A stretch of DNA of 64,000 bases from a virus (IMGVR_UViG_3300045747_000454:32001-96000); one strand, 5' to 3'. Positions 20,073-63,454 are shown, numbered from the stretch's first letter. Numbers and translations are program-made. Notes: a model not told the origin generated them from the sequence alone.

Positions 20073-20564
20073 TTACGGTAGGACGGCGTCCTTACGAATC
20101 AGCCAGACGCGCGTGACATCCTTACTCCAAGCCTTGATGACATTCTTAGACCAACTGCGAAAGTTGGCGTCGTCAACCTTCTCGAGGTCCGTGACTCGAA
20201 CGTAGCCGAGCTGCGCCGCGTGCCGCCCGACTATAGCATCGTAGAGCTTGACTCGGCTTAGCTCGCTGTTCTTGGAGCTGAAGCCAATGCCAAGTGGCTT
20301 GTTCTCGGCGACGGCTTTCTTCAACACGTCAAAGACCGTGCTGAGAATGCGCAGAGCAACGATCCTGTCGGCTGGACTATCGCCAATCAGATCCCACGTT
20401 CCCTTTCGCTTGAAATCGACGATGTAGGTCTGACCACCCTGCCACCAATCGAGCGTGATAATGACAAGCTCATTCGAGCCATCCAGAAAGTGCGCCTCAA
20501 TGCTCTTGTTGTTCTCTTCAACCTCGTACTTGTACGGAGAGTCAAGCAGCTCTTGCAGAATCAT
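20073..20564 (-). CDS. Putative internal head protein (163 aa, starts MILQELL)
   Basis: True start at 20564 overlaps the gp6 stop (ATGA); N-terminus resembles the capsid-targeting peptides elsewhere in the window. Confidence 0.6.
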   Translation of the reverse strand: MILQELLDSPYKYEVEENNKSIEAHFLDGSNELVIITLDWWQGGQTYIVDFKRKGTWDLIGDSPADRIVALRILSTVFDVLKKAVAENKPLGIGFSSKNSELSRVKLYDAIVGRHAAQLGYVRVTDLEKVDDANFRSWSKNVIKAWSKDVTRVWLIRKDAVLP

Positions 20565-41952: not shown

Positions 41953-43641
41953 TTGAGCACACTATCAAACTACTGGCGAATCATCACTCCGGCATCGCGC
42001 AAGCAGATGTACACGACGCTCGCCACCGACGCGTACGACCCGAGAACGACTGACGTCTCGTCGCTCTCGTCCGTGCAGTGGTACTCACAGGTTCTGCGTG
42101 GTCCTGGATCGCGCTCGCAGATGTACAAGCAGTACGACGCGATGGACGGCGACATTGACATCTGCCGCAGCCTCGACATCATCGCCGAGGAAATGTCAGG
42201 CAAGAACGACAAGACCGACCTGCCCTTCGAGATCAGCTACGAGAAGGAGGACAATCAAGATGTCTCCGACTCTACGGCAGTCACGCTCCGTCAGGCAGTT
42301 CGTCAGTGGTCAGAGCTGCAGGATTTGAAGCGTCGCATCTACACGATTGGTCGAACGATGATCAAGTACGGCGACTGCTTCTTTCAGAAGATGTCTGACA
42401 CGAAGAAATGGAAGTACATCGACCCGTCGCTCGTCTACGGTATCGAGGTCAACGAGTTCGGCGACAAGATTGCCTATCACGTAAAGCGTCCGCACGCCGG
42501 CATGGGCAGCCCATTCGCTCCTCGTCAGGAGCAGCTCGACGTGATTCCGGCTGACGCCATGATTCACTTCACGATGTGCGACGACATGGGCGACTCCGCT
42601 CCGTTCGGTCAGTCGGTCCTTCGTCCAGTCTTTCGTGTCTATCGTCAGCTGGCGATGATCGAGGACGCCGTCATCATCTACCGTATCGTTCGCGCTCCAG
42701 AGCGCCGCGTCTTCTACGTCGACACCGGCAACATGCCACCACAGCGCGTCAAGCTGTACCTCGAGCAGATCAAGAACGAGATTCGTCAGAAGCGCTCGCC
42801 AACCTCGAATCAAGGCGGCAAGGACACCGTTGACGGTGCCTACGACCCGATGTCGATTCAGGAGGACATGTTCTTCCCTGTCAACGCTGCTGGTCGTAGC
42901 TCACGCGTTGAAACTCTGCCAGGCGGCACCGAAGACTTCGGCACGAACCTGCTCAAGTACTTTCAGGACAAGGTTTTCCGTGGTCTGCGCATTCCAACCT
43001 CCTACATGTCAGGCGGCGACGGGCAGGGCGCTCAGTACAACGACGGCAAGGTCGGCATCGCGTACATCGAAGAAATGCGCTTCGCCAACTTCGTCATGCG
43101 TCTTCAGGATCGTCTTGAGGAGCACTTTGACAGCGAGTTTAAGACCTATCTGAAGGTCGTCGGTCTGAAGATCGACGAGGAGATCTTCAAGCTCAAGCTG
43201 CCTGATCCATCTAACTTTGCGCTGTATCGTCAGGCTGCGCTCGACGCCGACCTGATTGGCTCGTTCAACAACATCGAAGCGACGAAGTATCTGTCGCGTC
43301 GCTTCATTCTCAAGCGCTACCTTGGTCTTAACGACGACGAGATTCAGATGAACGAGGTCATGATCAAGGAAGAGCGTGGCATCACCGAAGCATCAGACAT
43401 TCCGTCCATTCAGCAGATCTATGACCCAACGGTCTACGAGAACCGTGAGAGCCGGACCGTTGATGCTGGTGAGGGTGAAATCGCTGGTGGTCTGGGCGGC
43501 GAGGAGGACATTGGCATGGAGCCAGGCGGCTTCATGCCTGACCCAATGGCAGGCGGCGATCTAGGTGCTGAAGAACCATTGGCTCCTGAAGCTCCAGCCC
43601 CAGCAGGCGGCGCGGAACCGGCCGCAGAACCAGCGGTTTAA
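41953..43641 (+). CDS. Portal protein (T4 gp20-like)
   Basis: QLAMIEDAVIIYRIVRAPERRVFYVDTGNMP, EDMFFP, VETLPGG, YFQDKVFRGLRIPTSY. Confidence 0.96.
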   Translation: MSTLSNYWRIITPASRKQMYTTLATDAYDPRTTDVSSLSSVQWYSQVLRGPGSRSQMYKQYDAMDGDIDICRSLDIIAEEMSGKNDKTDLPFEISYEKEDNQDVSDSTAVTLRQAVRQWSELQDLKRRIYTIGRTMIKYGDCFFQKMSDTKKWKYIDPSLVYGIEVNEFGDKIAYHVKRPHAGMGSPFAPRQEQLDVIPADAMIHFTMCDDMGDSAPFGQSVLRPVFRVYRQLAMIEDAVIIYRIVRAPERRVFYVDTGNMPPQRVKLYLEQIKNEIRQKRSPTSNQGGKDTVDGAYDPMSIQEDMFFPVNAAGRSSRVETLPGGTEDFGTNLLKYFQDKVFRGLRIPTSYMSGGDGQGAQYNDGKVGIAYIEEMRFANFVMRLQDRLEEHFDSEFKTYLKVVGLKIDEEIFKLKLPDPSNFALYRQAALDADLIGSFNNIEATKYLSRRFILKRYLGLNDDEIQMNEVMIKEERGITEASDIPSIQQIYDPTVYENRESRTVDAGEGEIAGGLGGEEDIGMEPGGFMPDPMAGGDLGAEEPLAPEAPAPAGGAEPAAEPAV

Positions 43642-43675: not shown

Positions 43676-44284
43676 ATGAAAATTCTATCAGAACACCTTG
43701 CACCAGCGCAGTCGAAGCTTACCGAAATGCGCCGCGGCAACGACCTCTACCTGTCTGGCATCATGATGCAGGCTGCGCTGAAGAACGGCAACGGCCGTTG
43801 CTACCCGCTCGAAGAGATCTCGAAGGCCGTTGAGACGGCAAAAACTCGCATCAGCGAGGGCAACTACATCTGCGGTGAGCTCAATCACCCAGACGTGCTG
43901 TCGATCAATCTCGCCAACGTCTCGCACGCCATCGTCGAAGCCAGCATGTCTGGCAATGACGCCATCGGCAAGATGAAGCTCCTCAACACACCGTCTGGCA
44001 ACATCGCCAAGGGTCTGATCGAAGGTGGCGTTCGTCTCGGCGTGTCGTCACGCGGCACCGGCAACGTGAACGAAGGCGGCAACGTCTCTGACTTCTCGTT
44101 CGTCACCGTCGACATCGTCTATCAGCCATCGGCACCAGGCGCCTACCCGAACGTCGTTCACGAAGCGATGGGTTCGAAGAAGGTGATGACCCTCGCCGAA
44201 GCCATGGTCCACGATCCGAAGGCGCAGAAGCACTTCGCCAAGGAAATCAAGACGTTCCTCGAAGCCCTCAAGCTGAACAAGTAA
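43676..44284 (+). CDS. Prohead core protease (T4 gp21-like)
   Basis: KNGNGRCYP, GELNHP, LGVSSRGTG, VDIVYQPSAPGAY. Confidence 0.95.
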   Translation: MKILSEHLAPAQSKLTEMRRGNDLYLSGIMMQAALKNGNGRCYPLEEISKAVETAKTRISEGNYICGELNHPDVLSINLANVSHAIVEASMSGNDAIGKMKLLNTPSGNIAKGLIEGGVRLGVSSRGTGNVNEGGNVSDFSFVTVDIVYQPSAPGAYPNVVHEAMGSKKVMTLAEAMVHDPKAQKHFAKEIKTFLEALKLNK

Positions 44285-46242: not shown

Positions 46243-47595
46243 ATGCAATTGATTGAAAACTGGCAAGAAACCAAAGAGGCGCTGCTCGAAGGCCTTCAAG
46301 GTTCCAAGAAGTCCGTCATGGACACCCTGCTCGAAAATCAGAAGAACTATCTGATCGAAACAGCAGGCCCACAAGCTGTCGCCACCGGCGCCATCAGCAA
46401 CTTCCAGAAGATCACCATTCCGATGATCCGACGTATCCTCCCAGGTACGATCTCTTCGGACCTGGTTGGTCAACAGCCAATGGCTGGCCCAGTCGGCCTG
46501 GTGTACTCGCTGCGCTTCGCCTACGGTGAAGACGCGACGACTCCGACGACCGGTACTGACATCACTGCTGGCGACGAAATCTACAGCAACAACGTCTCGA
46601 AGTTCAAGCGCTTCTACTCGACGCAAGTCGGCGGCACCACTGGCTACCCGCCAGTCGGCACCACGACCTCTGACGGTCACCCAGTCCCGAACGTTGACAC
46701 CCGTCCTGACGCTTCGATCACCAACACGACCGGCACGTTCAATCCGATGGACAACACGTCGGCCGGTATGGAAGGCTTCGGCGGTCGCTCGCTGCGCCTC
46801 GCTGTTCTGAAGCAGACGATCACGGCCGGTTCACGCAAGCTGCAAGCTCGCTGGACCATGGAAGCTGCTCAAGACCTGAACAGCCAGCACGGCATGGACC
46901 TCGAGTCCGAGCTGACCGCTGCTCTGTCCACCCAGATCGCTCATGAAATCGACAACGAAATCCTGACCGACCTGATGGGTCTCGCTTCGACCGTCGCTAC
47001 GTTCGACTTCGCTGCAATCCCGGCTGGCATCACCGCCAACTACCTCGGCGACCGCTACGCCCACCTCGGCATCCTCATCAACAAGATGGCGAACGAGATC
47101 GGTGTCAAGACCCGTCGTGGCCCAGCAAACTGGCTCGTCGGTGGTCACCTGATCACTTCGATGCTGCAGTCCGCTGCCAAGTCGGTGTTCGCCCCGGCCG
47201 TTCAAGGCTCGTTCGCTGACCCGATCGGCAACAAGCTGGTCGGCACGCTGAATGGCTCGATCAAGGTCTACGCATACAACTGGGGTCTCCAAGACGCCTG
47301 GCAGATGTCGTCGACTGGCTCGCCAACCGGCATGGTCAACGCCATGGGTACCGTCGGTGAAGAAGTTCTGCTCGGCTTCAAGGGCGGTTCGTCCGAACTT
47401 GACACTGGCTACTTCTACTGCCCGTACATCCCGCTGATGAGCACTGGTGTGGTCATGGACGCCAACACGTTCAGCCCAGCCGTCTCGCTCATGACGCGCT
47501 ACGGCAAGTGCACGTTCCTGAACACGAACACGTCGCTCGGGAACTCAGCAGATTACTACGCCAGAATTTTGGTCAAGAACGTCAGTTTTTCCTGA
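46243..47595 (+). CDS. Major capsid protein (T4 gp23-like)
   Basis: LLENQ, DLVGQQPMAGPVGLVYSLR, SRKLQARWTMEAAQDL, GYFYCPYIPL, MTRYG. Confidence 0.97.
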   Translation: MQLIENWQETKEALLEGLQGSKKSVMDTLLENQKNYLIETAGPQAVATGAISNFQKITIPMIRRILPGTISSDLVGQQPMAGPVGLVYSLRFAYGEDATTPTTGTDITAGDEIYSNNVSKFKRFYSTQVGGTTGYPPVGTTTSDGHPVPNVDTRPDASITNTTGTFNPMDNTSAGMEGFGGRSLRLAVLKQTITAGSRKLQARWTMEAAQDLNSQHGMDLESELTAALSTQIAHEIDNEILTDLMGLASTVATFDFAAIPAGITANYLGDRYAHLGILINKMANEIGVKTRRGPANWLVGGHLITSMLQSAAKSVFAPAVQGSFADPIGNKLVGTLNGSIKVYAYNWGLQDAWQMSSTGSPTGMVNAMGTVGEEVLLGFKGGSSELDTGYFYCPYIPLMSTGVVMDANTFSPAVSLMTRYGKCTFLNTNTSLGNSADYYARILVKNVSFS

Positions 47596-51939: not shown

Positions 51940-53811
51940 ATGGCAGACATTACCGCAAAGACAACCCATGACCTTTGGGTTGAGTCACGCGAGTTCTCGC
52001 TCAGCATCTCTCGCTCGGCGCCAACCTCCATCACAATCACCGTCACTCGACCGGCTAGTCTAACGGTCGTCGACGGCGCGGTGGTGCTGCTCTCTACGAG
52101 CCCTATTGCTGCTGCGAACTATCCGACCGACGGTCGACAGTACACCCCGTCGGTCGACGAGCTCATTCCAGCCGACCGCATCGTCGGTGTTGACGGCGCG
52201 CACGTCGTTGGCTCCTACTCCGGCGTTCTCGGTAGCCCGATGCCGACAGGTACCCTTGATGCAGCGACTGGCAAGGTGTCGTTTGACATCGTGGTCACCA
52301 ACACTGATGCAACGAAAATCTACTACGCGTCAGTCCACGGCGTGTCGAACGTTCTTCAGTACTACCCAGTCGGCATTCAGTCGTACCCAATCGAAGGCTC
52401 ACGCGTTGAGAAGGGCGTCGAGGGCTTCGCTGGCAACATTCCATCTCTACCAGAGGCGCCAGTCTCACCGACCGAGGGCTTCGTCTATCACGACCAGCAG
52501 CTCAATCTCTTTCAGTACTGGACCGGCACGACTTGGGTCCCAACGCGTGCTGACACCATTCTTACTGGCGACAACTTCCCTGGTGCAATTGGCTACACCT
52601 ACCTGCTGAACGCTGGTCCGCCGCGCATCTTCGACGGCGTCAAGTGGGTCTTCGCCAATGAGACGAACCTTCAGTTTCGCACTGGCGCGACTTGGACTCC
52701 GATTCATGGCTACTCAGCCTACACAAAGCTGCCAGAAGCACCAACCATCGGCGACCTTATCTGGAACTACACGTCACAGCGTGGTCAGTACTGGGATGGC
52801 GCTCAGTGGGTTTACCCAGGTCCGAGCAACTCTCTGTTCGACACTGGGACTGGTCTCATTCCAGCCTTCGTCAATCCACTTGGCATCGAGTTCACGATGC
52901 TGCCAACGCCGTACGTTGGCCTGCTGTTCTACAACACCACGACCAAGGAGCTGAGCGCTTGGACTGGCACTGAGTGGCGTCGCGCCAACACTGATCAGAT
53001 CGGCTCACCAATCAGCGACAAGCTGACGGTTGGTAACGATGGCTCCTACAATGAGCGCATGCGCCTCATCAAGGTGCTGAAGTCGCAGCTCGGCTGGCCG
53101 CAGTCGTGCGTCGAGCTCGAGGAGGAGCAGTTCAACATCGCCATCGACAACGCGCTCGACAACTTCCGCATGTGGTGCGACGGTGCCTATCGCATGAAGT
53201 ACGTGATGTTCAAGCTGTACAATGGGCAGCAAACGTACTATCTGAACAGTCAAGTCGATCAGACCGACAAGATCGTGGATGTCGCCAAGATTCACCGACT
53301 GAACATTCTCGGTATCGAAACGGCGAATGGTAACGACGCCGTCTGGACATCTGGCATTCTGACGTCATACTACAGCGCCGTGTCTGTCGACATTCTGTCG
53401 CTCAACATGCTGTCGATGATGTCGGAAGAGTTTCAGCGGCTGTTCGCTGGTGACCTTACCTTCCTTTGGGATGAGCCGAGTCGTGAGCTGTTCGTCACGC
53501 GCAAGATCTATCGCGACGAGAAGGTCATCGTCGAGTGTCTGATGGAGCGGACGGAGCAGGAGATTCTGGTCGACCGTTGGAGCAAGCAGTTCATTCAGAA
53601 CTGGGCCTTGGCTGAAGCCAAGTATCAGCTCGGCATGATTCGTAGTCGCTTCAGCTCTGGCACGCCAGGTGCTGCCGGCACCATCACGCAGAACGGTGAG
53701 CTGCTCATCACTGAAGCTCGACAGGACATGACTGAGCTGAAGCAATCGGCGCTCGACTTCGAGTGGGGTGGACACGTTGGTCACGGCAACGTCAGCTTCC
53801 TTTTTGGATAG
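51940..53811 (+). CDS. Neck protein (gp13-like) with long N-terminal extension
   Basis: C-terminal third: KSQLGWPQSCVELEEEQFNIAIDNAL...WALAEAKYQLGMIRSRF...PGAAGTITQNGELL. Confidence 0.85.
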   Translation: MADITAKTTHDLWVESREFSLSISRSAPTSITITVTRPASLTVVDGAVVLLSTSPIAAANYPTDGRQYTPSVDELIPADRIVGVDGAHVVGSYSGVLGSPMPTGTLDAATGKVSFDIVVTNTDATKIYYASVHGVSNVLQYYPVGIQSYPIEGSRVEKGVEGFAGNIPSLPEAPVSPTEGFVYHDQQLNLFQYWTGTTWVPTRADTILTGDNFPGAIGYTYLLNAGPPRIFDGVKWVFANETNLQFRTGATWTPIHGYSAYTKLPEAPTIGDLIWNYTSQRGQYWDGAQWVYPGPSNSLFDTGTGLIPAFVNPLGIEFTMLPTPYVGLLFYNTTTKELSAWTGTEWRRANTDQIGSPISDKLTVGNDGSYNERMRLIKVLKSQLGWPQSCVELEEEQFNIAIDNALDNFRMWCDGAYRMKYVMFKLYNGQQTYYLNSQVDQTDKIVDVAKIHRLNILGIETANGNDAVWTSGILTSYYSAVSVDILSLNMLSMMSEEFQRLFAGDLTFLWDEPSRELFVTRKIYRDEKVIVECLMERTEQEILVDRWSKQFIQNWALAEAKYQLGMIRSRFSSGTPGAAGTITQNGELLITEARQDMTELKQSALDFEWGGHVGHGNVSFLFG

Positions 53812-53880
53812 CGAACCTAGGAACATTTTAGCTGCCGTCTGAAAATGGTGTACTATACGCTATTACAGACGGGAGCTAAA

Positions 53881-54696
53881 ATGCGAGCGGACCAACGCCA
53901 ATACCACATCATCTACAAGACCACTTGCCTCACAACAGGCAAGTGGTATCTCGGGATGCATTCAACTGATGACCTCAACGACGGGTATCTTGGTAGCGGG
54001 CAACTTCTCTGGAAGTCGCTCAAGAAGTACGGGAAGGACAATCATCAATACGAGATTCTAGAGTATCTGCCATCTCGAAAAGCGTTGATCCTTCGAGAAG
54101 AGGAGTTGATCACCGACGAAGTCAGAAATCAACCGCAGTGCCTGAATCTTCGCAACGGCGGGACAGGCAATGACCCTGGATTCTGGGAGATGACGGACGA
54201 GGACAAGCGCACCCAAGCTAGCGAGCGTCTATCTGTCAAGAGCAAGAAGATGTGGGCGGAACGCAAAGCGGACCCAATCGCACTTGCTGAGCACATTGCC
54301 AAAGCTATTACGCCTGAAAGCATTGGCAAACGAGCTGCTACTACCAGAGCTAGAGCTCACAAGCGAACACCAGAGCAGCTTGCCAATCTTACTACTGGGC
54401 AACAGAGCTACTACGCTAACGTTGACCCGACGGTGCTAAAGACACGTGGGCAGAAGGCAGCTCAAACACGTCTAGAGCGAGGCACCAACAAAGGCGGACG
54501 ACCGAAAGGTATCCCAGCGACTGAGTCGCAGAAGCAATGCAAGACCTGGATCATTCAGACCGAAGATGGCGCCAAACAAGTCATTCGCAATCTCAAGGCG
54601 TTCTGCGAAGAGCACAACATCAGCAGAACGTCGTTCGTACGTTCTGCCAGTAATGACAAGTTTATGAACGGATTCAGATTGGTTGGACCCACTTGA
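53881..54696 (+). mobile_element. Free-standing GIY-YIG homing endonuclease (Seg-like)
   Basis: YHIIYKTTCLTTGKWYLGMHSTDDLNDGYLGSG...E.EELI..CLNL; C-terminal NLKAFCEEHNI domain; inserted between gp13 and gp14. Confidence 0.85.
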
Positions 54697-54740: not shown

Positions 54741-56600
54741 ATGCCAACACCATCTTGCCCCGACTCAGTCGGCAGCGTCAACACACCGAACTCCACGGCG
54801 ATCCCCGTATCGCCAACGAACCCGGCGCGGGCGTACGTCGCTCCAGCGCTGAACATCGGGACCTACTCTCTCACCGACGCCTGCTCGAACCTTGACTCGA
54901 AGTATCAAGAGGACGTCGCAGCAGAGAACCTCAATGTGTCTGGTGCACCGGTCAACGTCTTCAAGCTGCTTGGCATTCACGAGCAGGGCAAGCTCATCGA
55001 CCTCACTGGGACCGGCGCGCCACTCGGCAGCGGTGCTCCAGATCAGGCGTTCGATGCGCTTGCTGGGTCGTGGATCAGCGCTGAGACCGGTGCTGCCGTG
55101 CTTGAAGCGCCAGCCTACATCGGCTACGACTTCGGCGCTCGTCTCACATCATTCGGACAACCAGAGACGGTGCCGGCCCCGAACATTCAGCTGCACGTCA
55201 CGTCCTTTCGCATTCAACAGGGTTCAGACCCAGCCACTCGCGCCCTTCAAGTTCGCATCGACCGAAGCCACGGTGGCTATCGCGTTGACCCACTGAAGGT
55301 CAACTTCACAGGCGTTGGCAATGGTGGCTTCGGCAGCTTCAGCGCTGGCGTTGAGGCGAAGCCTGGCACGCTGATGCTGGCTGCTCTCTCGCCAACGCAG
55401 TTCAGCGTCTTCTTCACGGGCAGCGCTGGCACCGTGGTGCTTGGCGTCGCCACCGTTGGTGTGCGCTTCAACTCAACGATCTGCTCGTTCACTCTCACGA
55501 CTGGGTCAATCCCATACGATGTCAATGACCTCTTCACCGTAGTCATCGAGCTCGAGTGGCTGCGAGTTGACGTCGTCAATCTACCGAACCTCGCTACACC
55601 AGCCCTCATTCGCGTACGTCAATCATCGCAAGCTCGCTACTGGCGCGTTGTGCCGTTGAGCTTCGCTGGCGTGCTGAGCAATCAACCTTGGGTCGTTGAG
55701 AAGCTCGAGCTGTTCGACTTTCAGCAGACGCGCCTCGACGACATTCAAGATAGTCTGTACATGGAAAACCGTGACCGCGACTACGCCAAGGCGTCGATGC
55801 AGCTCAAGGCAGCGTACACACCGTTCGACGCCGTCAGCGACCTGTCGAAGTTCGGCTTCAGCATCGCCGACATCTACACCTTCACCACCAGCTTCGCGCA
55901 GATGGTCGCCACGCTTGGTCGTCCAATCGTTGTTGGCGATGTGCTTGAACTGCCAGGCGAGCTTGGCTTCGACCACAACCTCAAGCCAGTGCGCAAGTTC
56001 CTTGAGGTGTCAGACGTGAGCTGGAGCGCTGAGGGCTTCACCACGAACTGGCGTCCAATCCTCTATCGCTTTCAAGCGCAGAACCTGATCCCGTCGCAGG
56101 AGACACGCGACATTCTCGGCACCGCCGACACGCAGAAGTACATCATCGATGATGGTTCATTCTTCGCTGGCATCGAGCAGATCTCGACGGCCGACCTTAC
56201 TGCCGCCGAGCGTAATCAAGCTGAAGCGGTCGATGCTGTGCCTGAGAAGGGCACGAACGTTCGTGAGGAGGCCTCTGGCACGAATCGCTTCGGGCAGCCT
56301 GGCTCCTATGATGGCGTTGGTGTCTACGTTGAGGATGGTCTGCCGCCAGATGGCAAGCCATACGAGACTGGCTTCAAGCTGCCAGACGTTGGTACCGGTG
56401 TGAACGGATCCTTCTTCCGTCTTGAGTACGATCCGAAGCTCAACATTCCAGCTCGCCTCTACAAGTTCTCGAGCATTAAGGGCAAGTGGATCTTCGTTGA
56501 GACTGACCGTCGCACCGCTCGCTCAGCGCATCGTCCATCGCAGCTTGAGATTCTGAATCGCACGACCACGATGCCGCTCAACACTAAGAAGCCAGTCTGA
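54741..56600 (+). CDS. Neck/head closure protein (gp14-like) with inserted domains
   Basis: IQDSLYMENRDRDY...DLSKFG...LGRPIVVGDVLELP; position between gp13 and gp15. Confidence 0.8.
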   Translation: MPTPSCPDSVGSVNTPNSTAIPVSPTNPARAYVAPALNIGTYSLTDACSNLDSKYQEDVAAENLNVSGAPVNVFKLLGIHEQGKLIDLTGTGAPLGSGAPDQAFDALAGSWISAETGAAVLEAPAYIGYDFGARLTSFGQPETVPAPNIQLHVTSFRIQQGSDPATRALQVRIDRSHGGYRVDPLKVNFTGVGNGGFGSFSAGVEAKPGTLMLAALSPTQFSVFFTGSAGTVVLGVATVGVRFNSTICSFTLTTGSIPYDVNDLFTVVIELEWLRVDVVNLPNLATPALIRVRQSSQARYWRVVPLSFAGVLSNQPWVVEKLELFDFQQTRLDDIQDSLYMENRDRDYAKASMQLKAAYTPFDAVSDLSKFGFSIADIYTFTTSFAQMVATLGRPIVVGDVLELPGELGFDHNLKPVRKFLEVSDVSWSAEGFTTNWRPILYRFQAQNLIPSQETRDILGTADTQKYIIDDGSFFAGIEQISTADLTAAERNQAEAVDAVPEKGTNVREEASGTNRFGQPGSYDGVGVYVEDGLPPDGKPYETGFKLPDVGTGVNGSFFRLEYDPKLNIPARLYKFSSIKGKWIFVETDRRTARSAHRPSQLEILNRTTTMPLNTKKPV

Positions 56601-57256
56601 TGCTCCTACAAGAACTCACAGTCAAAGACACCAAGGATCCAGAGGACATTCTCAAGATCCTTCGGCGAGACTGCAAGCCGTTTCTATCGTCTGGTCTTTC
56701 GCATCCATTCTATCGTGGTCTGCCACGCGCCTTTGCCGGTAAACAAACCCCGATCATCACGCTCGAGTACGATCTGAAGGAAGTGCATCTGATCAAGATG
56801 ACGCGTCAGCACGATCGGTTGCCTACTGGCACGAACCCAGCCGTTCACGACCTGTTCGACACGCTGTTCAACTCAAAGTTCGGTTGGAAGGCTCGATCGT
56901 CTGGCGTCTTCGCCTCTGCCGAGTGGGCTCAAGCCAACGGCTATGGCATGCCATTCGCCTTCTTTCCAATCGGCAACTTTCACTCGCTCTGGTCGCCTGA
57001 GGTCTACGATCTGTTTGCAGCGCTGCCACGCGGGCTCGAGACGATGATCGTCCACGGCAGCTCTAAGGAGAAGGTCGAGGGCAAGCTGCGGTTGCGCCAC
57101 TACTTCGACACGCTCGACTATCATGCGGATGATCTGAAGAGCCTCGGCGACGACCATCGCGAGGTGATGTTTGACTGCGACAGCTACTATCTGGTTGATG
57201 CTCATAGCAAGTGGGACGAGACTGACCATCCAGTGCTCAAGGAACTTTTCAAATGA
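56600..57256 (+). CDS. Putative ADP-ribosyltransferase-fold internal head protein, paralog 1
   Basis: MLLQEL start; FYRG...FGWKAR..GVFAS...ANGYG...WSP...REVM. Confidence 0.6.
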   Translation: MLLQELTVKDTKDPEDILKILRRDCKPFLSSGLSHPFYRGLPRAFAGKQTPIITLEYDLKEVHLIKMTRQHDRLPTGTNPAVHDLFDTLFNSKFGWKARSSGVFASAEWAQANGYGMPFAFFPIGNFHSLWSPEVYDLFAALPRGLETMIVHGSSKEKVEGKLRLRHYFDTLDYHADDLKSLGDDHREVMFDCDSYYLVDAHSKWDETDHPVLKELFK

Positions 57257-57912
57257 TGACCTTCAAGGACTTTATCGCCGAGGACATAGTGCCGAACATG
57301 CCGCTGGCGCAGTATGTCAAGATGCGCTGCGCACCGTACCTCAAGCTGCCGGGCGCTACGTCTGGTCTGCTGTTTCGTGGTCTTGGGCCGTTTGGCACCT
57401 CGTCTAAGGAGAAGATCAACGGCACCGATGTCAAGTGGAAGGTCGTCACCGCTCGCAAGAACCGTCCGGCAGGCGACACGCCGCAGGAGTTCTCAGACGA
57501 AGCAGACAAGTACTTTCAAGAGATGTTTGGTTGGAAGGCTCGTGGCGACGCGACGTTCGTATCTGGCAACATGTTTCAAGCCGGCAACTACGGCGACGTT
57601 CACATCGTCATTCCAATGGGCGAGACGAAGTTCGTTTGGTCGCCAAAGCTCGTAGACCTGTACACCGAAGTCTTCATAAAGCTCTTTGGGCGCTATGGTC
57701 CAAAGAGCAACAAGGACCCAGAAGAGCATGCCAAGTTCATTGAGGCAATCAAGAAGGCGAACTACATCGACACCGATCTGACGAAGGCTATTAAGTCTAA
57801 GCACGAGATCGCGCTGAACTGTCAGCGCTACGTCGCCATCGACATATCAAAGGTGCCAGCGCACGGTCGCTGGGACATCGCTGGCGCAATCGGAATCAAG
57901 AATCAAACATGA
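57253..57912 (+). CDS. Putative ADP-ribosyltransferase-fold internal head protein, paralog 2
   Basis: MTFKDFIAE start; LFRG...TFVSG...AGNYG...WSP...HEIA. Confidence 0.6.
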   Translation: MMTFKDFIAEDIVPNMPLAQYVKMRCAPYLKLPGATSGLLFRGLGPFGTSSKEKINGTDVKWKVVTARKNRPAGDTPQEFSDEADKYFQEMFGWKARGDATFVSGNMFQAGNYGDVHIVIPMGETKFVWSPKLVDLYTEVFIKLFGRYGPKSNKDPEEHAKFIEAIKKANYIDTDLTKAIKSKHEIALNCQRYVAIDISKVPAHGRWDIAGAIGIKNQT

Positions 57913-58547
57913 AGCTGCGCGACCTCTTCGAGGACCAACAGACTCTTGAGCAAGCTCTCAAGGACTGCGAGCCATATCTCAATCTGCCTGGCGCTAAGAA
58001 CGGCATGCTGTTTCGTGGCATGCGCAACCTCAGCTTCGACGACTACAATCGTGATATGGCGACTGGCACTCGCTGGTTGAACTTCAAATCTCGGCGTAAT
58101 CGTCTGCCATCTGACACGCCATCTGAGTACGCAACTCTCGCTGACGACGTGTTTCACGAGAAGTTCGATTGGTACCCACGGACCAACGGCACGTTCGTCA
58201 CCGGCAATCTCAAGGATTCTCGTGAGTACGGGATTCCGCACGTCGTCATTCCAATCGGGCCGACGCGCTACGTCTGGTCGCCGAAGGTCAAGGATCTGTT
58301 CCTTTGGCTCACTCAAGGGCTAGGGCTGTACACCGCGATGGCGGAGATGGCAGAGGACGAGCGGCACGCCTTCTTCACAGCCGAGCTCAAGAAAGCCGGC
58401 TACAAGGACACCGATCTTGGAGCTGGCATCCCAAGTGGTCACGAGATCATGCTCAGCTGCGATAGATACATAGCCGTCCGCTGTGATGGCGGCGAGTCTG
58501 GCATCATGGCTGCCGTCTACGAGCTAACCGACATCGAACCGGACTGA
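57909..58547 (+). CDS. Putative ADP-ribosyltransferase-fold internal head protein, paralog 3
   Basis: MKLRDLFE; LFRG...TFVTG...EYG...WSP...HEIM. Confidence 0.6.
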   Translation: MKLRDLFEDQQTLEQALKDCEPYLNLPGAKNGMLFRGMRNLSFDDYNRDMATGTRWLNFKSRRNRLPSDTPSEYATLADDVFHEKFDWYPRTNGTFVTGNLKDSREYGIPHVVIPIGPTRYVWSPKVKDLFLWLTQGLGLYTAMAEMAEDERHAFFTAELKKAGYKDTDLGAGIPSGHEIMLSCDRYIAVRCDGGESGIMAAVYELTDIEPD

Positions 58548-58549
58548 GC

Positions 58550-59200
58550 ATGAAACTACAAGATCTCTTTGAATGGCAAGAAACGCTTGGATCGGCGCTG
58601 AGGTCTAACTGTGGCGCCTATCTCAAGGCGCCAGGCGCTCACGCCGGCTTTCTGTTTCGTGGCATGCGCGCCAATCAGCTCGCACGGTACAACGAGGACA
58701 ATGAAACTGATCTGAAGTGGACCATTCTTCAGACTCGCAAGAATCGCCAGCCGTCGGATACGCCAGACGAGTTTCACGAGCTGGCAAACGAGTTCCTTCT
58801 TCAGAAGTTTGGTTGGAAGCCACGCACTGATGGTGTCTTTGCGACGAGCAGTCACAAGGAGGCTAATGGCTACGGTTTGCAGCACGTCTTCTTTCCAATC
58901 GGTCCTGTCGACTACATCTGGTCGCCGCACGCCCATGATCTGTACGTCAACATCTACCACGACATCCTGGCGCATGGTCCGAACAGCGCGCTTGATGATG
59001 ACGAGCAGCACAAGATCTTTCTGAAGGCGCTTGAGAACGCGGAGTATCAAGACTGGGGTCTGAGCTACGCAATTGAGAAGGGTCATGAGATCATGTTCAA
59101 CTGCGACCGTTATCTCGTTGTTCGCTGTGGTTCCAACGAGAAGGATGAAGTGCTTGAAAAGCTCGCCGAGCTAACTGGGATCGACCATGAAGCTGAGTGA
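58550..59200 (+). CDS. Putative ADP-ribosyltransferase-fold internal head protein, paralog 4
   Basis: MKLQDLFE; LFRG...VFATSS..EANGYG...WSP...HEIM. Confidence 0.6.
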   Translation: MKLQDLFEWQETLGSALRSNCGAYLKAPGAHAGFLFRGMRANQLARYNEDNETDLKWTILQTRKNRQPSDTPDEFHELANEFLLQKFGWKPRTDGVFATSSHKEANGYGLQHVFFPIGPVDYIWSPHAHDLYVNIYHDILAHGPNSALDDDEQHKIFLKALENAEYQDWGLSYAIEKGHEIMFNCDRYLVVRCGSNEKDEVLEKLAELTGIDHEAE

Positions 59201-59786
59201 CCTCTTTGAAGATGACAGCGAATCGCTTGAGGACGCCATCAAGCTCTGTCAACCGTACCTCTCAATGCCTGGCGCCAAGACCGGCTTGCTCTGGCGTGGC
59301 GTCAACACAGAGGACGATCGCTTTCAGCGAGATGAGCAGGACGACGGCACGGTTATCTCGTGGGGCATCTTCAACCGTCGAAACTATCGTCAGCCGAAGT
59401 CAACACCACTCGAGTACTCTGAGGCTATGGACGAGGTCTTCAAGAAGGAGTTTGGTTGGAAGCCTCGTCAGCAGGGCGTCTTCGTCACTGGCTCGCGTGG
59501 GCACGCATCTGGCTACGGCAAGGAGTACGTCTGCGTTCCTATTGGTCCGACGCGCTTCGTGTGGTCTGGCAATGTTGAAGACCTGTTCATCATTTGCCAG
59601 AACTTTCGCGAGCGACAGGGCGACTCCGTTGAGAAGTTCAAGAAGTTCCTCCTGACGCTTGATTACATCGACACTGATCTATCGCGCGCCATCAAGTCGC
59701 ATCACGAGATCATGCTCGACTGCGATAGCTATCTGCTGCTGTACACCAACGATCGTAGCAAGATCAAAACGCTACTAGGCATGTAA
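59187..59786 (+). CDS. Putative ADP-ribosyltransferase-fold internal head protein, paralog 5
   Basis: MKLSDLFE; LWRG...VFVTG...ASGYG...WSG...HEIM. Confidence 0.6.
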   Translation: MKLSDLFEDDSESLEDAIKLCQPYLSMPGAKTGLLWRGVNTEDDRFQRDEQDDGTVISWGIFNRRNYRQPKSTPLEYSEAMDEVFKKEFGWKPRQQGVFVTGSRGHASGYGKEYVCVPIGPTRFVWSGNVEDLFIICQNFRERQGDSVEKFKKFLLTLDYIDTDLSRAIKSHHEIMLDCDSYLLLYTNDRSKIKTLLGM

Positions 59787-60448
59787 TGATTCTACAAGAC
59801 CTCTTCGAAGCAAAGGCGACCATCGCCTCAACCATCGCTCGCTGCAAGCCATACCTCAGCATGCCTGGCGCCAAGACCGGCTTGCTGTATCGTGGCATCG
59901 AGCTGTCGTGGAAGGACTATCGCCACGAGGAGGTGACGCTGCCAAGTGGTGAGGTCATCGCCATTGACTGGACGATTCTGAAGCGTCGAGTCGGTCGTGA
60001 GCCGACCGCAACGCCACACGCGTACGCTTCTGCGGCTGATGACTTCTTCAACGAGAAGTTTGGTTGGCGCTGTCGGTCGGCTGGTACGTTTGCAACTGGG
60101 TACGAGCTTGAGACCGGCATCTACGGCGACACGCACATTTTTCTGCCGATCGGCAAGACCCGCTTCGTGTGGTCAGACTTCGTTCGCGACATGTACGAGC
60201 TGGTGAACAAGATTCGAATGTCGCCAAAATTTAGCAACCTCAATGATGACGAGCGCATGAAGGCTCTCGTCGAAAAGCTTGAGAGCTCTGACTACGTCAG
60301 CAGCGGTCTGGGTGATGCTATTCGTTCGCGCAAGGAGATCATGGTCGACTGCGGCAGCTACATTGCTGTTCTGGTTGACCGAAACAGCACTACCGTGAAC
60401 GATGTGGCAACCCGTAAATACATCAAAGACCTGACTGGCATCTCATGA
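59786..60448 (+). CDS. Putative ADP-ribosyltransferase-fold internal head protein, paralog 6
   Basis: MILQDLFE; LYRG...TFATG...IYG...WSD...KEIM. Confidence 0.6.
   Translation: MILQDLFEAKATIASTIARCKPYLSMPGAKTGLLYRGIELSWKDYRHEEVTLPSGEVIAIDWTILKRRVGREPTATPHAYASAADDFFNEKFGWRCRSAGTFATGYELETGIYGDTHIFLPIGKTRFVWSDFVRDMYELVNKIRMSPKFSNLNDDERMKALVEKLESSDYVSSGLGDAIRSRKEIMVDCGSYIAVLVDRNSTTVNDVATRKYIKDLTGIS
60413..60420 (+). promoter_or_regulatory. Late promoter (CGTAAATA) inside paralog 6
   Basis: TAAATA core 25 nt upstream of paralog 7, which is coupled to gp15. Confidence 0.5.
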
Positions 60449-61125
60449 ACCTACGAGACCTCTTCGAAGTTAAGAAGCCTGCGCTTCATCCATCTGAGCT
60501 CGGCGACCTACTTGCCGCCGATGCTGGGAAGTATCTCAACACTGCTGGCGTGAAGACAAGCTTTCTGTACCGTGGTCTGACCGTCCCGCTTCAGAGCTAC
60601 ACGACCGAGGAGATCGACGGTAGCGAGGTGTCGTGGATCATCATGGACGCACGCCGTGATCGCGAACCCGTGAGCACGCCGAAGGCGTTCTCTAACGCCG
60701 CTGACGCCTACTTCAATCAGCACTTTCGTTGGACGCCACGCCGCGATGGCACCTTCGCCGTCAAGAACCTCAGTCTCGCTCGCGACTACGGCGAGGGTAA
60801 CATCTTCATTCCGCTCGGCGACTTTCGCTTCATCTGGTCTGAGGACATTGCCGACCTCTACATCGCCTACGATGAGATCAAAGAGGACTGGTATGAAGCC
60901 AACCTGTCGAGAGACGAGATGATTGAGAAGTGGGTCGAGTATCTTGACACAGCTGGCTACACCAATCAAGACCTTGGGCGCGCTATTGCATCTGATCATG
61001 AGATCATGTTCGACTGCAATCAGTATCTGCTCGTTCATCTTCCGCTGTCTCGTGGTCCGAACGGTGGCACTGCTGTCGCTAAGGTCATGACCGCCCTCAC
61101 CGGCATCAAGTACGGATACAAATGA
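60445..61125 (+). CDS. Putative ADP-ribosyltransferase-fold internal head protein, paralog 7
   Basis: MNLRDLFE; LYRG...TFAVK...ARDYG...WSE...HEIM. Confidence 0.6.
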   Translation: MNLRDLFEVKKPALHPSELGDLLAADAGKYLNTAGVKTSFLYRGLTVPLQSYTTEEIDGSEVSWIIMDARRDREPVSTPKAFSNAADAYFNQHFRWTPRRDGTFAVKNLSLARDYGEGNIFIPLGDFRFIWSEDIADLYIAYDEIKEDWYEANLSRDEMIEKWVEYLDTAGYTNQDLGRAIASDHEIMFDCNQYLLVHLPLSRGPNGGTAVAKVMTALTGIKYGYK

Positions 61126-61910
61126 TCTCTAACTACCACTTTGACAATCAGCTGCGCGCTTACATGCTGCAGTTCGTCAGCATCTTCTACGGACTGCAGG
61201 TGCAGACTGGCAAGGGCGAGTGCGATGAACCTGAGTTCATTCAAGTGCCAGTCGTCATCGGCAACAAGGACAAGGTCGTTGCTGCCATCATGACTGGCAA
61301 CACCAACAATCGGTCGTTCGCGCTGCCGCTGATGTCTGCTCACCTCGTCTCACTTGCACAGGCGCCAGAGCGCCGCAAGGTGCAGGCGTACGTCGACCAG
61401 CGCGTCACGATGAAGGCTGGTGGTGTGTTCCCAGATGACCTGACGGTTGTCAAGCGCGCCATGCCAATCCCATACAACATGACGCTCGAGCTGTCCATCT
61501 ACGCCTCGAACATGCAGCAGCGCGATCAGATTCTCGAGCAGCTGCTGGTGCTGTTCAACCCAGACCTGCAGATTCAAAAGAGCGATGGACCATTCGACTG
61601 GACGAAGTTGACGAAGGTCGAGCTGACCGACATCAGCAACGAGGAGAATTATCCGACTGGCACTGACAAGCGGATAATCACCTGGACTCTAATGTTCGAG
61701 GTTCCAATCTATCTGAGCATTCCAATGGGCGTCAAGGACGATCTGGTGCGCCGCATCACGATTCGCATCGGCGACCTTGACAGCATGCAGATTGGCGTCG
61801 TTGATGAGAACGGTGAGATTCTGCCGTTCGGCACCGTGCTGACCACGCTTGACATCACGACTCGCGACCCGTCTGGTCCGACACCATTCCCACCGACGCC
61901 ACTGCCATGA
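61122..61910 (+). CDS. Tail sheath stabiliser / tail completion protein (gp15-like)
   Basis: YHFDNQLRAYMLQFVSIF...VPVVIG...PIPYNMTLELSIYASN...QILEQLLVLFNP. Confidence 0.88.
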   Translation: MISNYHFDNQLRAYMLQFVSIFYGLQVQTGKGECDEPEFIQVPVVIGNKDKVVAAIMTGNTNNRSFALPLMSAHLVSLAQAPERRKVQAYVDQRVTMKAGGVFPDDLTVVKRAMPIPYNMTLELSIYASNMQQRDQILEQLLVLFNPDLQIQKSDGPFDWTKLTKVELTDISNEENYPTGTDKRIITWTLMFEVPIYLSIPMGVKDDLVRRITIRIGDLDSMQIGVVDENGEILPFGTVLTTLDITTRDPSGPTPFPPTPLP

Positions 61911-63454
61911 TCACCTTTCGTCAGTATCTAGAAGAGCGCTCGATGAGCGCAACTGAGCTTGAGAAGGTCGCGACTCGGCACGCCAACACTGCGAAGATCG
62001 GCTTCGAGTTCGAGTTCGCCCTGCCGCCTGGACATCGCCTCATCTCCGCCGAGAGCAACGAGATGCGCGACACGGCAACGCTCGACGAGTTCGATGACAT
62101 GGAGGAGCTGCTGCACGCTCTTGGTGCTGCTCGCCGAGACTTCAGCAGCTTCAACAGCGCCTACAACGATTGGAAGGAAGAAGCTCAGAACCTCTGGGTT
62201 GATGAGAACTGGAACGCCTATAACGAGAATGATGAAGATGAGGGGCGCAGCGAAGCGTTGGATTACTACGAACGCAGAGAAGCTGAAGGCATGACCGAGC
62301 TCGAGTTCGTCAAGAGCGAGTATGGCAGTCGCCTTGAGATGCTGGCTCACTTTGGCGTGTCGCCAGACCACGGCTGGAGCGACGAGCGCAACAACGACCG
62401 ATCAGCCTTCTACACCTCGCAAGCATCTGAGGACGATGAGAAGTTCACGCACGAGCTTGTCGCCAAGGAGCTGCACAGCGACCTCGGCGTTGACATCGTT
62501 GTCCCAGCAATTGAACCACACGAACCGTCGACGCAGTGGATGGTGGTGCCAGATGGTTCAATCAGCGGTGGCAGCGGCGTCGAGGTCGTTTCACCACCGT
62601 TGCCGCTGAAGGAAGGTCTTGAGAAGCTTGCTGAGATGTTCGCGTGGATGAAGAGCCAGTACGTCATCACCAACGCGAGCACGGGCTTTCACATCAACGT
62701 CAGCACGCCAAATCTTTCGAACCTCGACCCAGTCAAGCTCATCGTCTTTCTCGGTGAGAAGCACGTGTTGACACAGTTCAATCGGGTGCTGAACACCTAC
62801 ACATCGCAGCAGTCTGAGCGCATCATCAACTCAGTCGGCTCATCAGGCAAAATGCCGAAGGAGGCGCAAGCGCTCATCGACCTGGCAAAGTCGGTGCTGT
62901 CCAATCAGAAGTACTCGTCGGTCAATCTGAGCAAGCTGGCGCACGGCTATCTTGAGTTTCGCATCGTCGGCAACGAGAACTATCACAAGCGCCTGAACGA
63001 GGTTCGCTCAGCCTCGCTGCGCTTCGTCTCAGCGCTTGAGGTCGCCTGCGACCCTGACGCCGAGCGCAAGCTGTACCTGAAGAAGCTGGCAGCGATGATG
63101 GACCTCGGTACGACGCGCGACCACAACGATGACTTCGACAATCGCCCAATCACCGACATTCTCGACATGGCGAGCGAGAACAATCTACCGTATGACCAAA
63201 TGATGGAGATGGCGAAGAAGGGCAACGTCACGGCAGTGCAGCGCGGCAAGGCGGTGAACTTCATCATCAACATTCTGATGGAGCAGCTTCACTCTTCATT
63301 TGTCTCACTCGGCATCAAGCATCCAAGCGCGCGCCACCGTGCTGAGCTGAAGCTGCTGCTGAAGCGCCTTGGAGTGACAACGGATGACCTTCACGCGGTG
63401 GCAGACAGACCTGAAAGTACCCTCAACCTTCGTTGGTTCTTCGCCGAAAAGTGA
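61907..63454 (+). CDS. Putative amidoligase (COOH-NH2 ligase type 2) with capsid-targeting-like N-terminus
   Basis: KIGFEFEF, WMVVPDGSI, GVEVVSPPL, NASTGFHINVS, KYSSVNL, YLEFR; starts MITFRQYLEE. Confidence 0.82.
   Translation: MITFRQYLEERSMSATELEKVATRHANTAKIGFEFEFALPPGHRLISAESNEMRDTATLDEFDDMEELLHALGAARRDFSSFNSAYNDWKEEAQNLWVDENWNAYNENDEDEGRSEALDYYERREAEGMTELEFVKSEYGSRLEMLAHFGVSPDHGWSDERNNDRSAFYTSQASEDDEKFTHELVAKELHSDLGVDIVVPAIEPHEPSTQWMVVPDGSISGGSGVEVVSPPLPLKEGLEKLAEMFAWMKSQYVITNASTGFHINVSTPNLSNLDPVKLIVFLGEKHVLTQFNRVLNTYTSQQSERIINSVGSSGKMPKEAQALIDLAKSVLSNQKYSSVNLSKLAHGYLEFRIVGNENYHKRLNEVRSASLRFVSALEVACDPDAERKLYLKKLAAMMDLGTTRDHNDDFDNRPITDILDMASENNLPYDQMMEMAKKGNVTAVQRGKAVNFIINILMEQLHSSFVSLGIKHPSARHRAELKLLLKRLGVTTDDLHAVADRPESTLNLRWFFAEK

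Follow-up and report, generated by a model that had tools for sequence, protein, structure and literature searches.

Seven tandem genes for predicted ADP-ribosyltransferase-fold proteins, six with a T4-type leader, in a giant T4-like phage

Introduction

Bacteriophage T4 packages two kinds of protein that each resemble, in part, the products of the locus described here, a tandem array of seven genes at 56600–61125 of a 64,000-nucleotide stretch of viral DNA (IMGVR_UViG_3300045747_000454:32001-96000; the window). The first, Alt, has an ADP-ribosyltransferase (ART) fold, resides in the prohead core, is trimmed at its N-terminus by gp21 and is ejected with the DNA (PMC9026906); early host takeover is its proposed role and is likewise proposed here for the array proteins. 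The second kind comprises IPI, IPII and IPIII, the internal proteins, which share a portable ten-residue leader on diverse cargo (PMC9026906, PMC3012670). In T4 this leader is sufficient for head targeting, with positions 4 and 7 targeting the protein and positions 8 and 10 directing its processing (PMC9026906). According to Iyer et al. (2021, PMC7824862), several ARTs are encoded by jumbo phages of each of that paper's three groups, most commonly groups 2 and 3, and ART domains are injected by some phages; its main text, the supplementary lists aside, describes no leader-tagged, tandemly expanded ART family.

The phage is a giant T4-like phage. Its source is a 116-kb IMG/VR record, of which the window is bases 32001–96000, and the completeness estimate for this record is 32%, which implies a jumbo phage. 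Compared with Alt, which is a single-copy protein of about 76 kDa from the R-S-E clade, the array proteins are small (about 24 kDa) and numerous (7 + 8 copies), lack the S-T-S and [QE]-x-E motifs and carry a leader of the ipIII type. No sequence similarity could be detected between them and the Alt-related ModA/ModB, Alt itself lying outside this comparison. In T4 the internal proteins are small, for the most part basic, and not enzymes, whereas the tagged cargo of the array phage is enzyme-like (ART fold, kinase, amidoligase) and is predominantly marked by a second, shorter leader type, MKLxDLFE. Packaged ARTs and leader-directed head cargo are each known from one model phage, Alt and the internal proteins of T4. 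What is new is that both features are joined in one family, which comprises thousands of sequence clusters, lacks both a Pfam model and any functional annotation, is expanded in tandem and shares its tag with other enzymes.

The array and its paralogues

Exactly seven open reading frames (ORFs), all on the + strand and 199–226 residues long, fill 56600–61125, as a first-pass annotation of the window had described. Paralogue 1 (56600–57256, 218 residues) has a degenerate leader, with L-Q-E at residues 3–5. Paralogue 2 (57253–57912, 219 residues) carries the type A leader MMTFKDFIAE and is the sole basic copy [isoelectric point (pI) 9.2]. The remaining copies carry a type B leader: paralogue 3 (57909–58547, 212 residues), paralogue 4 (58550–59200, 216 residues), paralogue 5 (59187–59786, 199 residues), paralogue 6 (59786–60448, 220 residues) and paralogue 7 (60445–61125, 226 residues). 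Residues are numbered throughout as in paralogue 4. Neighbouring genes overlap by 1–14 bases with the single exception of a 2-base gap, paralogue 1 overlaps at its start with the stop of the gene before it, and the gp15 gene begins before paralogue 7 ends, an arrangement predicted to make the array one translationally coupled block.

Alignment of the seven proteins with MAFFT gave 22 invariant columns [aromatic-R-G; R.P..T; F.W..R...F; Y-G; P.G; W-S...D; E..C..Y], which reproduce the shared skeleton noted in the first-pass annotation, together with the valine that it had reported in place of Ser/Thr in paralogue 7. Pairwise identities range from 23 to 43%, and even the farthest-apart pair is matched by BLASTP at E = 1e-16; the sevenfold paralogy is real and far beyond chance. 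The 176-residue minus-strand ORFs within the array were rejected as shadows in view of the thousands of homologues known for the + strand proteins. A related contig (L014; 5.5 kb, 88% identity) contains paralogues 1–4 in the same order. The paralogues are old, each conserved in its own right, and did not arise by recent duplication.

Conserved residues and predicted fold

In a family alignment of 137 sequences, R37, R66, R92, G109, P116, D130 and E180 are invariant, and G38, F97, Y108, W124, S125, Y166, C21, C185 and Y188 are each at least 93% conserved. R37 (137/137) follows an aromatic residue and lies with G38 (136/137) in a predicted strand at residues 36–39, the first core strand. The next core strand (residues 96–99) contains F97 (136/137), and Y108-G109 follows 11 residues on, at a helix end. 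E180 (137/137) opens the strand 180–184, the penultimate core strand. The putative catalytic set R37-G38, F97 and E180 follows the order of the ART triad. The spacings F97–Y108 (11) and Y108–E180 (72) are presumably those of Y470, Y481 and E553 of exotoxin A, which would be in keeping with the diphtheria-toxin-like structural neighbours described below. Between the conserved elements there are three variable segments, at about residues 41–60, 131–160 and 191 to the end. The two cysteines C21 and C185 (58610–58612 and 59102–59104), at 93–95% conservation in the 137 sequences, may be paired with each other or bind a metal; paralogue 7 is without C21.

An AlphaFold2 (AF2) model of paralogue 4 was obtained from the 137-sequence alignment with a predicted local distance difference test score (pLDDT) of 93 and a predicted template modelling score (pTM) of 0.88. 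Comparison of this model with 48,161 representative chains in VIA-align gave as the best match BC2332 from Bacillus cereus (PDB entry 2AUA, which we take to be the representative of DUF2441) with a Z score of 5.7 over 133 aligned residues, followed by Arr (4.8), cholix (4.4), AvrPphF ORF2 (4.2), exotoxin A (4.1), diphtheria toxin (4.0) and DarT (3.8). Many PARPs were also among the matches; the diphtheria-toxin group and the PARPs scored 3–4.4 over about 90–130 residues, and ART folds made up about half of the best 50 of the 48,161 chains. The same picture was obtained with an independent AF2 model of paralogue 1 (pLDDT 77). When VIA-align was applied to the top 1000 chains from Foldseek, 17 chains reached Z ≥ 2; all 15 listed entries were ARTs and BC2332 scored 6.6. 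Pertussis toxin S1 was the sole structure of the R-S-E clade among the matches, with a Z score of 2.1–2.4. In the ESM Atlas the first structural neighbour outside the family was a PARP cluster, and the nearest Pfam-carrying cluster by features was DUF2441.

DUF2441 belongs to the ART clan of Pfam (PMC7955679). BC2332 is classified in the ADP-ribosylation superfamily (SCOP d.166.1.6; PMC3000352) and combines an ART fold with a site resembling that of diphtheria toxin (PMC3024214). It is the best structural neighbour of the array proteins in the VIA-align comparisons (Z 5.7–6.6, 130–133 residues aligned); unlike them, it is not viral and has no leader, and it has no known function. Relative to the H-Y-E clade of diphtheria toxin and the PARPs, the array family has arginine for the first histidine and phenylalanine for the first tyrosine, and its sequence has no significant similarity to either the diphtheria-toxin group or the PARPs. 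The ART-like fold proposed in the first-pass annotation was recovered in two independent models. The individual matches are weak, and it is their agreement that supports an ART fold; we therefore regard the seven gene products as divergent relatives within a single uncharacterised family of the ART superfamily, with BC2332 as the closest neighbour.

The leader and other tagged cargo

Leaders occur family-wide and are of two types, M-[IKLT]-T-F-[KR]-Q-[FY]-[LI]-x-E (type A) and M-K-[LV]-x-[DE]-L-[FY]-E (type B). The T4 proteins ipII and ipIII, which are annotated as internal virion proteins, begin with MKTYQEFIAE, and the leader of paralogue 2 is identical to this at six of ten residues. Type A retains the T4 positions, with an aromatic residue at 4 and 7, Ile or Leu at 8 and Glu at 10; type B has L-x-E ending at residue 8. 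In this genome, leaders were found on 18 of 274 ORFs read from their first ATG and at one of 647 internal methionine positions, the latter probably being a true start. Carriers unrelated to the family are an amidoligase, a zeta-toxin/AAA_33 kinase and at least five other ORFs. The Atu_ph07 members have a leader variant of their own (MRWEQLTE), and in RsoM2USA a leader is present both on a family member and on its kinase neighbour. Because the leader is found on unrelated proteins, has phage-specific variants and is absent between the domains of the five-domain protein P0001 described below, it is a separate, portable and phage-specific module. These features are as would be expected of a tag for docking on the scaffold and recognition by the protease, and support its assignment as a T4-type capsid-targeting peptide.

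The Amidoligase_2 protein (61907–63454, + strand, 515 residues) has the type A leader MITFRQYLEE, is coupled to the gp15 gene and is probably a further packaged enzyme. A zeta-toxin/AAA_33 P-loop kinase with a type A leader lies in or beside the ART-like arrays of three phages: the present one (L017:13053-13817; genome 109053-109817), that of the T4-like contig L016 (L016:7431-8162) and RsoM2USA (gp254; L012:7651-8394). Atu_ph07 encodes a 778-residue 'Zeta toxin domain-containing protein' for which the predicted structure in BFVD matches the ART-like model, which suggests a kinase/ART-like fusion. Small ORFs outside the family with a type B leader are further candidates for head cargo; these are at genome 97484-98466 (L017:1484-2466), at genome 104799-105086 and, on the minus strand, at window positions 20073-20564. 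The major capsid protein begins with an N-terminal extension of about 40 residues (46243–46500) in which L-I-E stands directly before the Gp23 domain. This is likely to be a cleavage site of the gp21 type, of the same L/I-x-E form as in the leaders.

Evidence from virions

The cultured Agrobacterium phage Atu_ph07 contains an array of ten homologues, gp54–63, and all ten are present in its published virion proteome with 3–15 unique peptides each and 12–46% coverage (PMC6102473, Table S5). The major capsid protein is represented in the same proteome by 10 peptides. The numbers gp54–63 were assigned to the family genes by means of gp70, the primase/helicase, and the listed masses. The authors of that study state that the cluster holds unexplained virion proteins and say nothing further of it (PMC6102473); the family members were therefore already in published virion data, unrecognised at the time. 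The RsoM2USA proteome, which covers only the ten strongest bands, contains nothing on family members. Detection of the Atu_ph07 homologues agrees with the virion packaging put forward in the first-pass annotation, and it is probable that the array proteins are packaged in the capsid and delivered together with the DNA.

Proposed function and alternatives

In the mechanism that we propose, the array genes would be transcribed and translated alongside the late neck and tail genes. The leader of 8–10 residues would attach each protein to the prohead's scaffolding core in the manner of T4 capsid targeting, and the gp21-type protease of the phage would cut the leader after its glutamate. The mature proteins, of about 22–24 kDa and mostly acidic, would be retained in the head along with the packaged DNA and pass into the cell when the genome does, together with the other leader-tagged cargo, the amidoligase and the zeta-toxin-like kinase. 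A putative pocket formed by R37-G38, R66, R92, F97, Y108-G109, D130 and E180 would bind nicotinamide adenine dinucleotide (NAD+) and transfer ADP-ribose, and the three variable segments would set a separate target for each paralogue. Packaging, pocket and variable segments would together make the array an injected set of enzymes for host takeover or counter-defence, comparable to T4 Alt although drawn from a different ART family. We rate this reading, that of leader-tagged ART-fold enzymes which are packaged in the head and injected, as having slightly better than an even chance of being correct. The interpretation in the first-pass annotation, in which an expanded and diversifying family of injected, NAD+-using R-S-E enzymes was envisaged, is partly supported. 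The idea that the array encodes basic internal proteins which condense DNA was dropped, six of the seven copies having a pI of 4.9–6.8.

A number of observations weigh against the proposed reading. Some concern the motifs: only 91 of the 137 sequences (66%) have Ser or Thr at position 99, which is thus not the conserved family feature that it had been taken for, and position 178, two residues before the glutamate, is mostly Gly, Lys, Arg or His, so that no [QE]-x-E is present. In hhalign the family matched T4 ModB alone and a ModA/ModB alignment with a probability of only about 2% (1.8% for the ModA/ModB alignment); in this nonsignificant alignment E180 is paired with the glutamate of the Mod E-Q-E. 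On these motif and hhalign results the R-S-E clade to which the family had at first been assigned is not supported, and the family is not placed there. Others concern the fold. A Foldseek search of the PDB with both models gave no match at E ≤ 0.001, with 2AUA appearing only at E of about 0.2; profiles of the seven paralogues and of the 137 sequences gave only chance matches (E > 0.2) when run with hmmsearch against PDB sequences; and the DUF2441 hidden Markov model (HMM) found nothing in the 137 members, this genome or four phage genomes. The VIA Z scores of 4–6.6 are below 7–8, a range which according to the tool's own note is common for unmatched models. As these scores are individually modest, the fold call rests on the consistency across the match list. 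The remaining points concern packaging: the capsid-targeting peptide with which every copy had been credited is clear in six of the seven paralogues and poor in paralogue 1, the present phage is uncultured and known here from its sequence, so that virion location is taken from the Atu_ph07 homologues, and the Atu_ph07 preparation was purified only with poly(ethylene glycol) (PEG) and contained some non-structural proteins (PMC6102473).

The strongest alternative retains packaged ART-fold enzymes and gives them non-protein substrates, namely DNA or RNA, RNA 2'-phosphates, a small molecule, or NAD+ or NAD-derived defence signals, with DarT or the RNAylation by T4 ModB, Tpt1/KptA and Arr as the respective models. 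The nearest folds are in keeping with it in that they include Arr, DarT and a Tpt1-like entry and not protein ARTs of the cholera-toxin type; the invariant R37, R66 and R92 would suit a phosphate-rich substrate. The zeta-toxin family phosphorylates nucleotide-sugar or NAD-type substrates, and a zeta-toxin-like kinase is among the co-tagged cargo. However, the protein-modifying diphtheria-toxin group and the PARPs score equally well, nothing separates the substrates, and the acidity of most copies does not suggest binding to nucleic acid. We regard non-protein substrates as unlikely, if worth keeping in view.

Less probable still, to a degree that we would call rather improbable, is that the proteins are packaged but do not catalyse, acting as binders or decoys such as inhibitors of host restriction or of other defence proteins like T4 IPI*, with the ART fold as a diversifying scaffold. 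The T4 proteins with such leaders are mostly non-enzymatic and their diversity has been tied to anti-restriction (PMC3012670), the surface segments of the paralogues are highly variable, and neither S-T-S nor [QE]-x-E is present in canonical form, all of which would fit. Against this, seven polar or charged residues are invariant in 137 sequences of about 30% identity, including all seven paralogues; such residues are typical of an active site and argue against a pure binder or scaffold under an arms race.

Finally, the proteins might be structural components, whether of the neck, the collar, the whiskers or hair-like fibres, with the shared N-terminus as a feature of assembly or translation. 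This would agree with the position of the array between neck genes and gp15 and with the hair-like fibres and many unassigned virion proteins of Atu_ph07 (PMC6102473), but we hold it to be very improbable. The genomic position varies: the Atu_ph07 array adjoins a primase/helicase gene and not neck genes, and the second array of this genome and the array of L016 are located elsewhere. The tag is shared with enzyme cargo, the amidoligase and the kinase, and corresponds to T4 at the positions mapped for targeting. Both points speak against a neck part, as do the predicted globular, 22 kDa, enzyme-like folds.

Should the proposed reading hold and the injected enzymes be active, the family would amount to a large and so far unexploited collection of injected effectors that use NAD+, and their targets would show what has to be put out of action first by a phage. 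The leader would in addition provide a simple means of predicting the injected proteome of T4-like phages from sequence alone. In a broader and more speculative form, which we put forward tentatively and hold to be more probably wrong than right, one short leader would serve T4-like jumbo phages as the general loading tag of an injected enzyme arsenal (tens of diversified ART-fold enzymes from a family not recognised before, a zeta-toxin-like kinase and an amidoligase). Within seconds of the onset of infection, every paralogue would act on a target of its own in the host or its defences, be it protein, nucleic acid or an NAD-derived signal, and the arrays would correspond, as enzymes, to the hypervariable loci for internal proteins in T-even phages.

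Genome context and distribution of the family

Upstream of the array the window contains a T4-type portal gene (41953–43641), the gene for a gp21-type prohead serine protease (43676–44284, + strand; PF03420, E 5.8e-24) and the gp23 major capsid protein gene (46243–47595). A head–tail adaptor (neck) protein (51940–53811, + strand; phrog_211, E 1e-44) opens the neck–tail block, and a homing endonuclease gene (53845–54696) separates it from the gene for a 619-residue protein directly upstream of the array (54741–56600, + strand), which matches only a PHROG named 'virion structural protein'. Downstream, a homologue of the T4 gp15 tail sheath stabiliser (61122–61910, + strand; PF16724, E 3.5e-36) is coupled to paralogue 7, and the tail sheath gene runs from 63548 onward. 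The first-pass annotation had placed the array between gp14 and gp15; the gp15 assignment stands, and the bare PHROG match does not verify the gp14 label. The 619-residue protein gave no match to the Pfam T4_neck-protein family, an uninformative result as the control genomes gave none either. The proteins that most resemble it come from RsoM2USA (43% identity), XacN1, Xoo-sp13 and Stenotrophomonas jumbo phages. In RsoM2USA the slot from gp402, the homologue of the 619-residue protein, to gp406 (gp15; PF16724, E 1.2e-40) is occupied by three genes with leaders, of which two are detectable as family members; the placement of the array is therefore conserved in a cultured phage. No T4 late promoter (TATAAATA) was found in the window.

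A profile of the seven paralogues matched 5548 representatives of 50% identity clusters at E ≤ 1e-3, 357 of them at E ≤ 1e-30. Pfam assigned no family to any of the seven paralogues or of the 137 family members, the PHROGs that match array proteins are all listed as of unknown function, and the public names of family members are 'hypothetical protein' only. Neighbours in the ESM Atlas are 94–100% viral where taxa are recorded. In BFVD, Foldseek retrieved only uncharacterised homologues, with no Alt or Mod among the best 50 matches listed, and a Mod-family profile matched only T4 modA and modB and nothing in the jumbo phages. No match was obtained by megablast of the array against phage records.

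Copies per genome were counted as profile matches to the 137-sequence family alignment. The present 116-kb fragment contains 15 members, the seven of the array and eight longer ones between genome 105.5 and 113 kb, where the zeta-toxin/AAA_33 kinase gene interrupts the series. Atu_ph07 gave 18 profile matches, several genes being matched twice (ten of its genes form the gp54–63 array), SCTP-2 gave 13, RsoM2USA four and XacN1 one; T4 has no family member by this profile. The jumbo phages searched, which have plant pathogens and environmental bacteria as hosts, thus contain 4–18 profile matches in about 4–15 genes, XacN1 with its single match apart, and these counts bear out the expansion of the family that had been anticipated. 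On the T4-like contig L016, 3 + 1 copies occur together with the kinase and further ORFs that bear a leader, flanked by tail genes on one side and a terminase-like gene on the other, the identities of these neighbours being taken from N-terminal sequences only.

A search among homologues for longer, fused forms found none, and the search of representatives yielded one multi-domain protein, P0001 (2645 residues, representative library), in which five family domains stand in tandem and are not separated by leaders. P0001 may be genuinely polyvalent, or the gene caller may have read through an array, perhaps one in another genetic code. The second array of the present genome, outside the window (L017:9640-16948; genome 105.6-113 kb), consists of eight members of about 250–290 residues in two subtypes, of which subtype A has C-S-T-S at the place of F-x-[ST] in the first array. 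Directly upstream of it (L017:8350-8802) is the gene for a protein with a TnsA-like endonuclease N-terminal domain (PF08722, E 3e-19).

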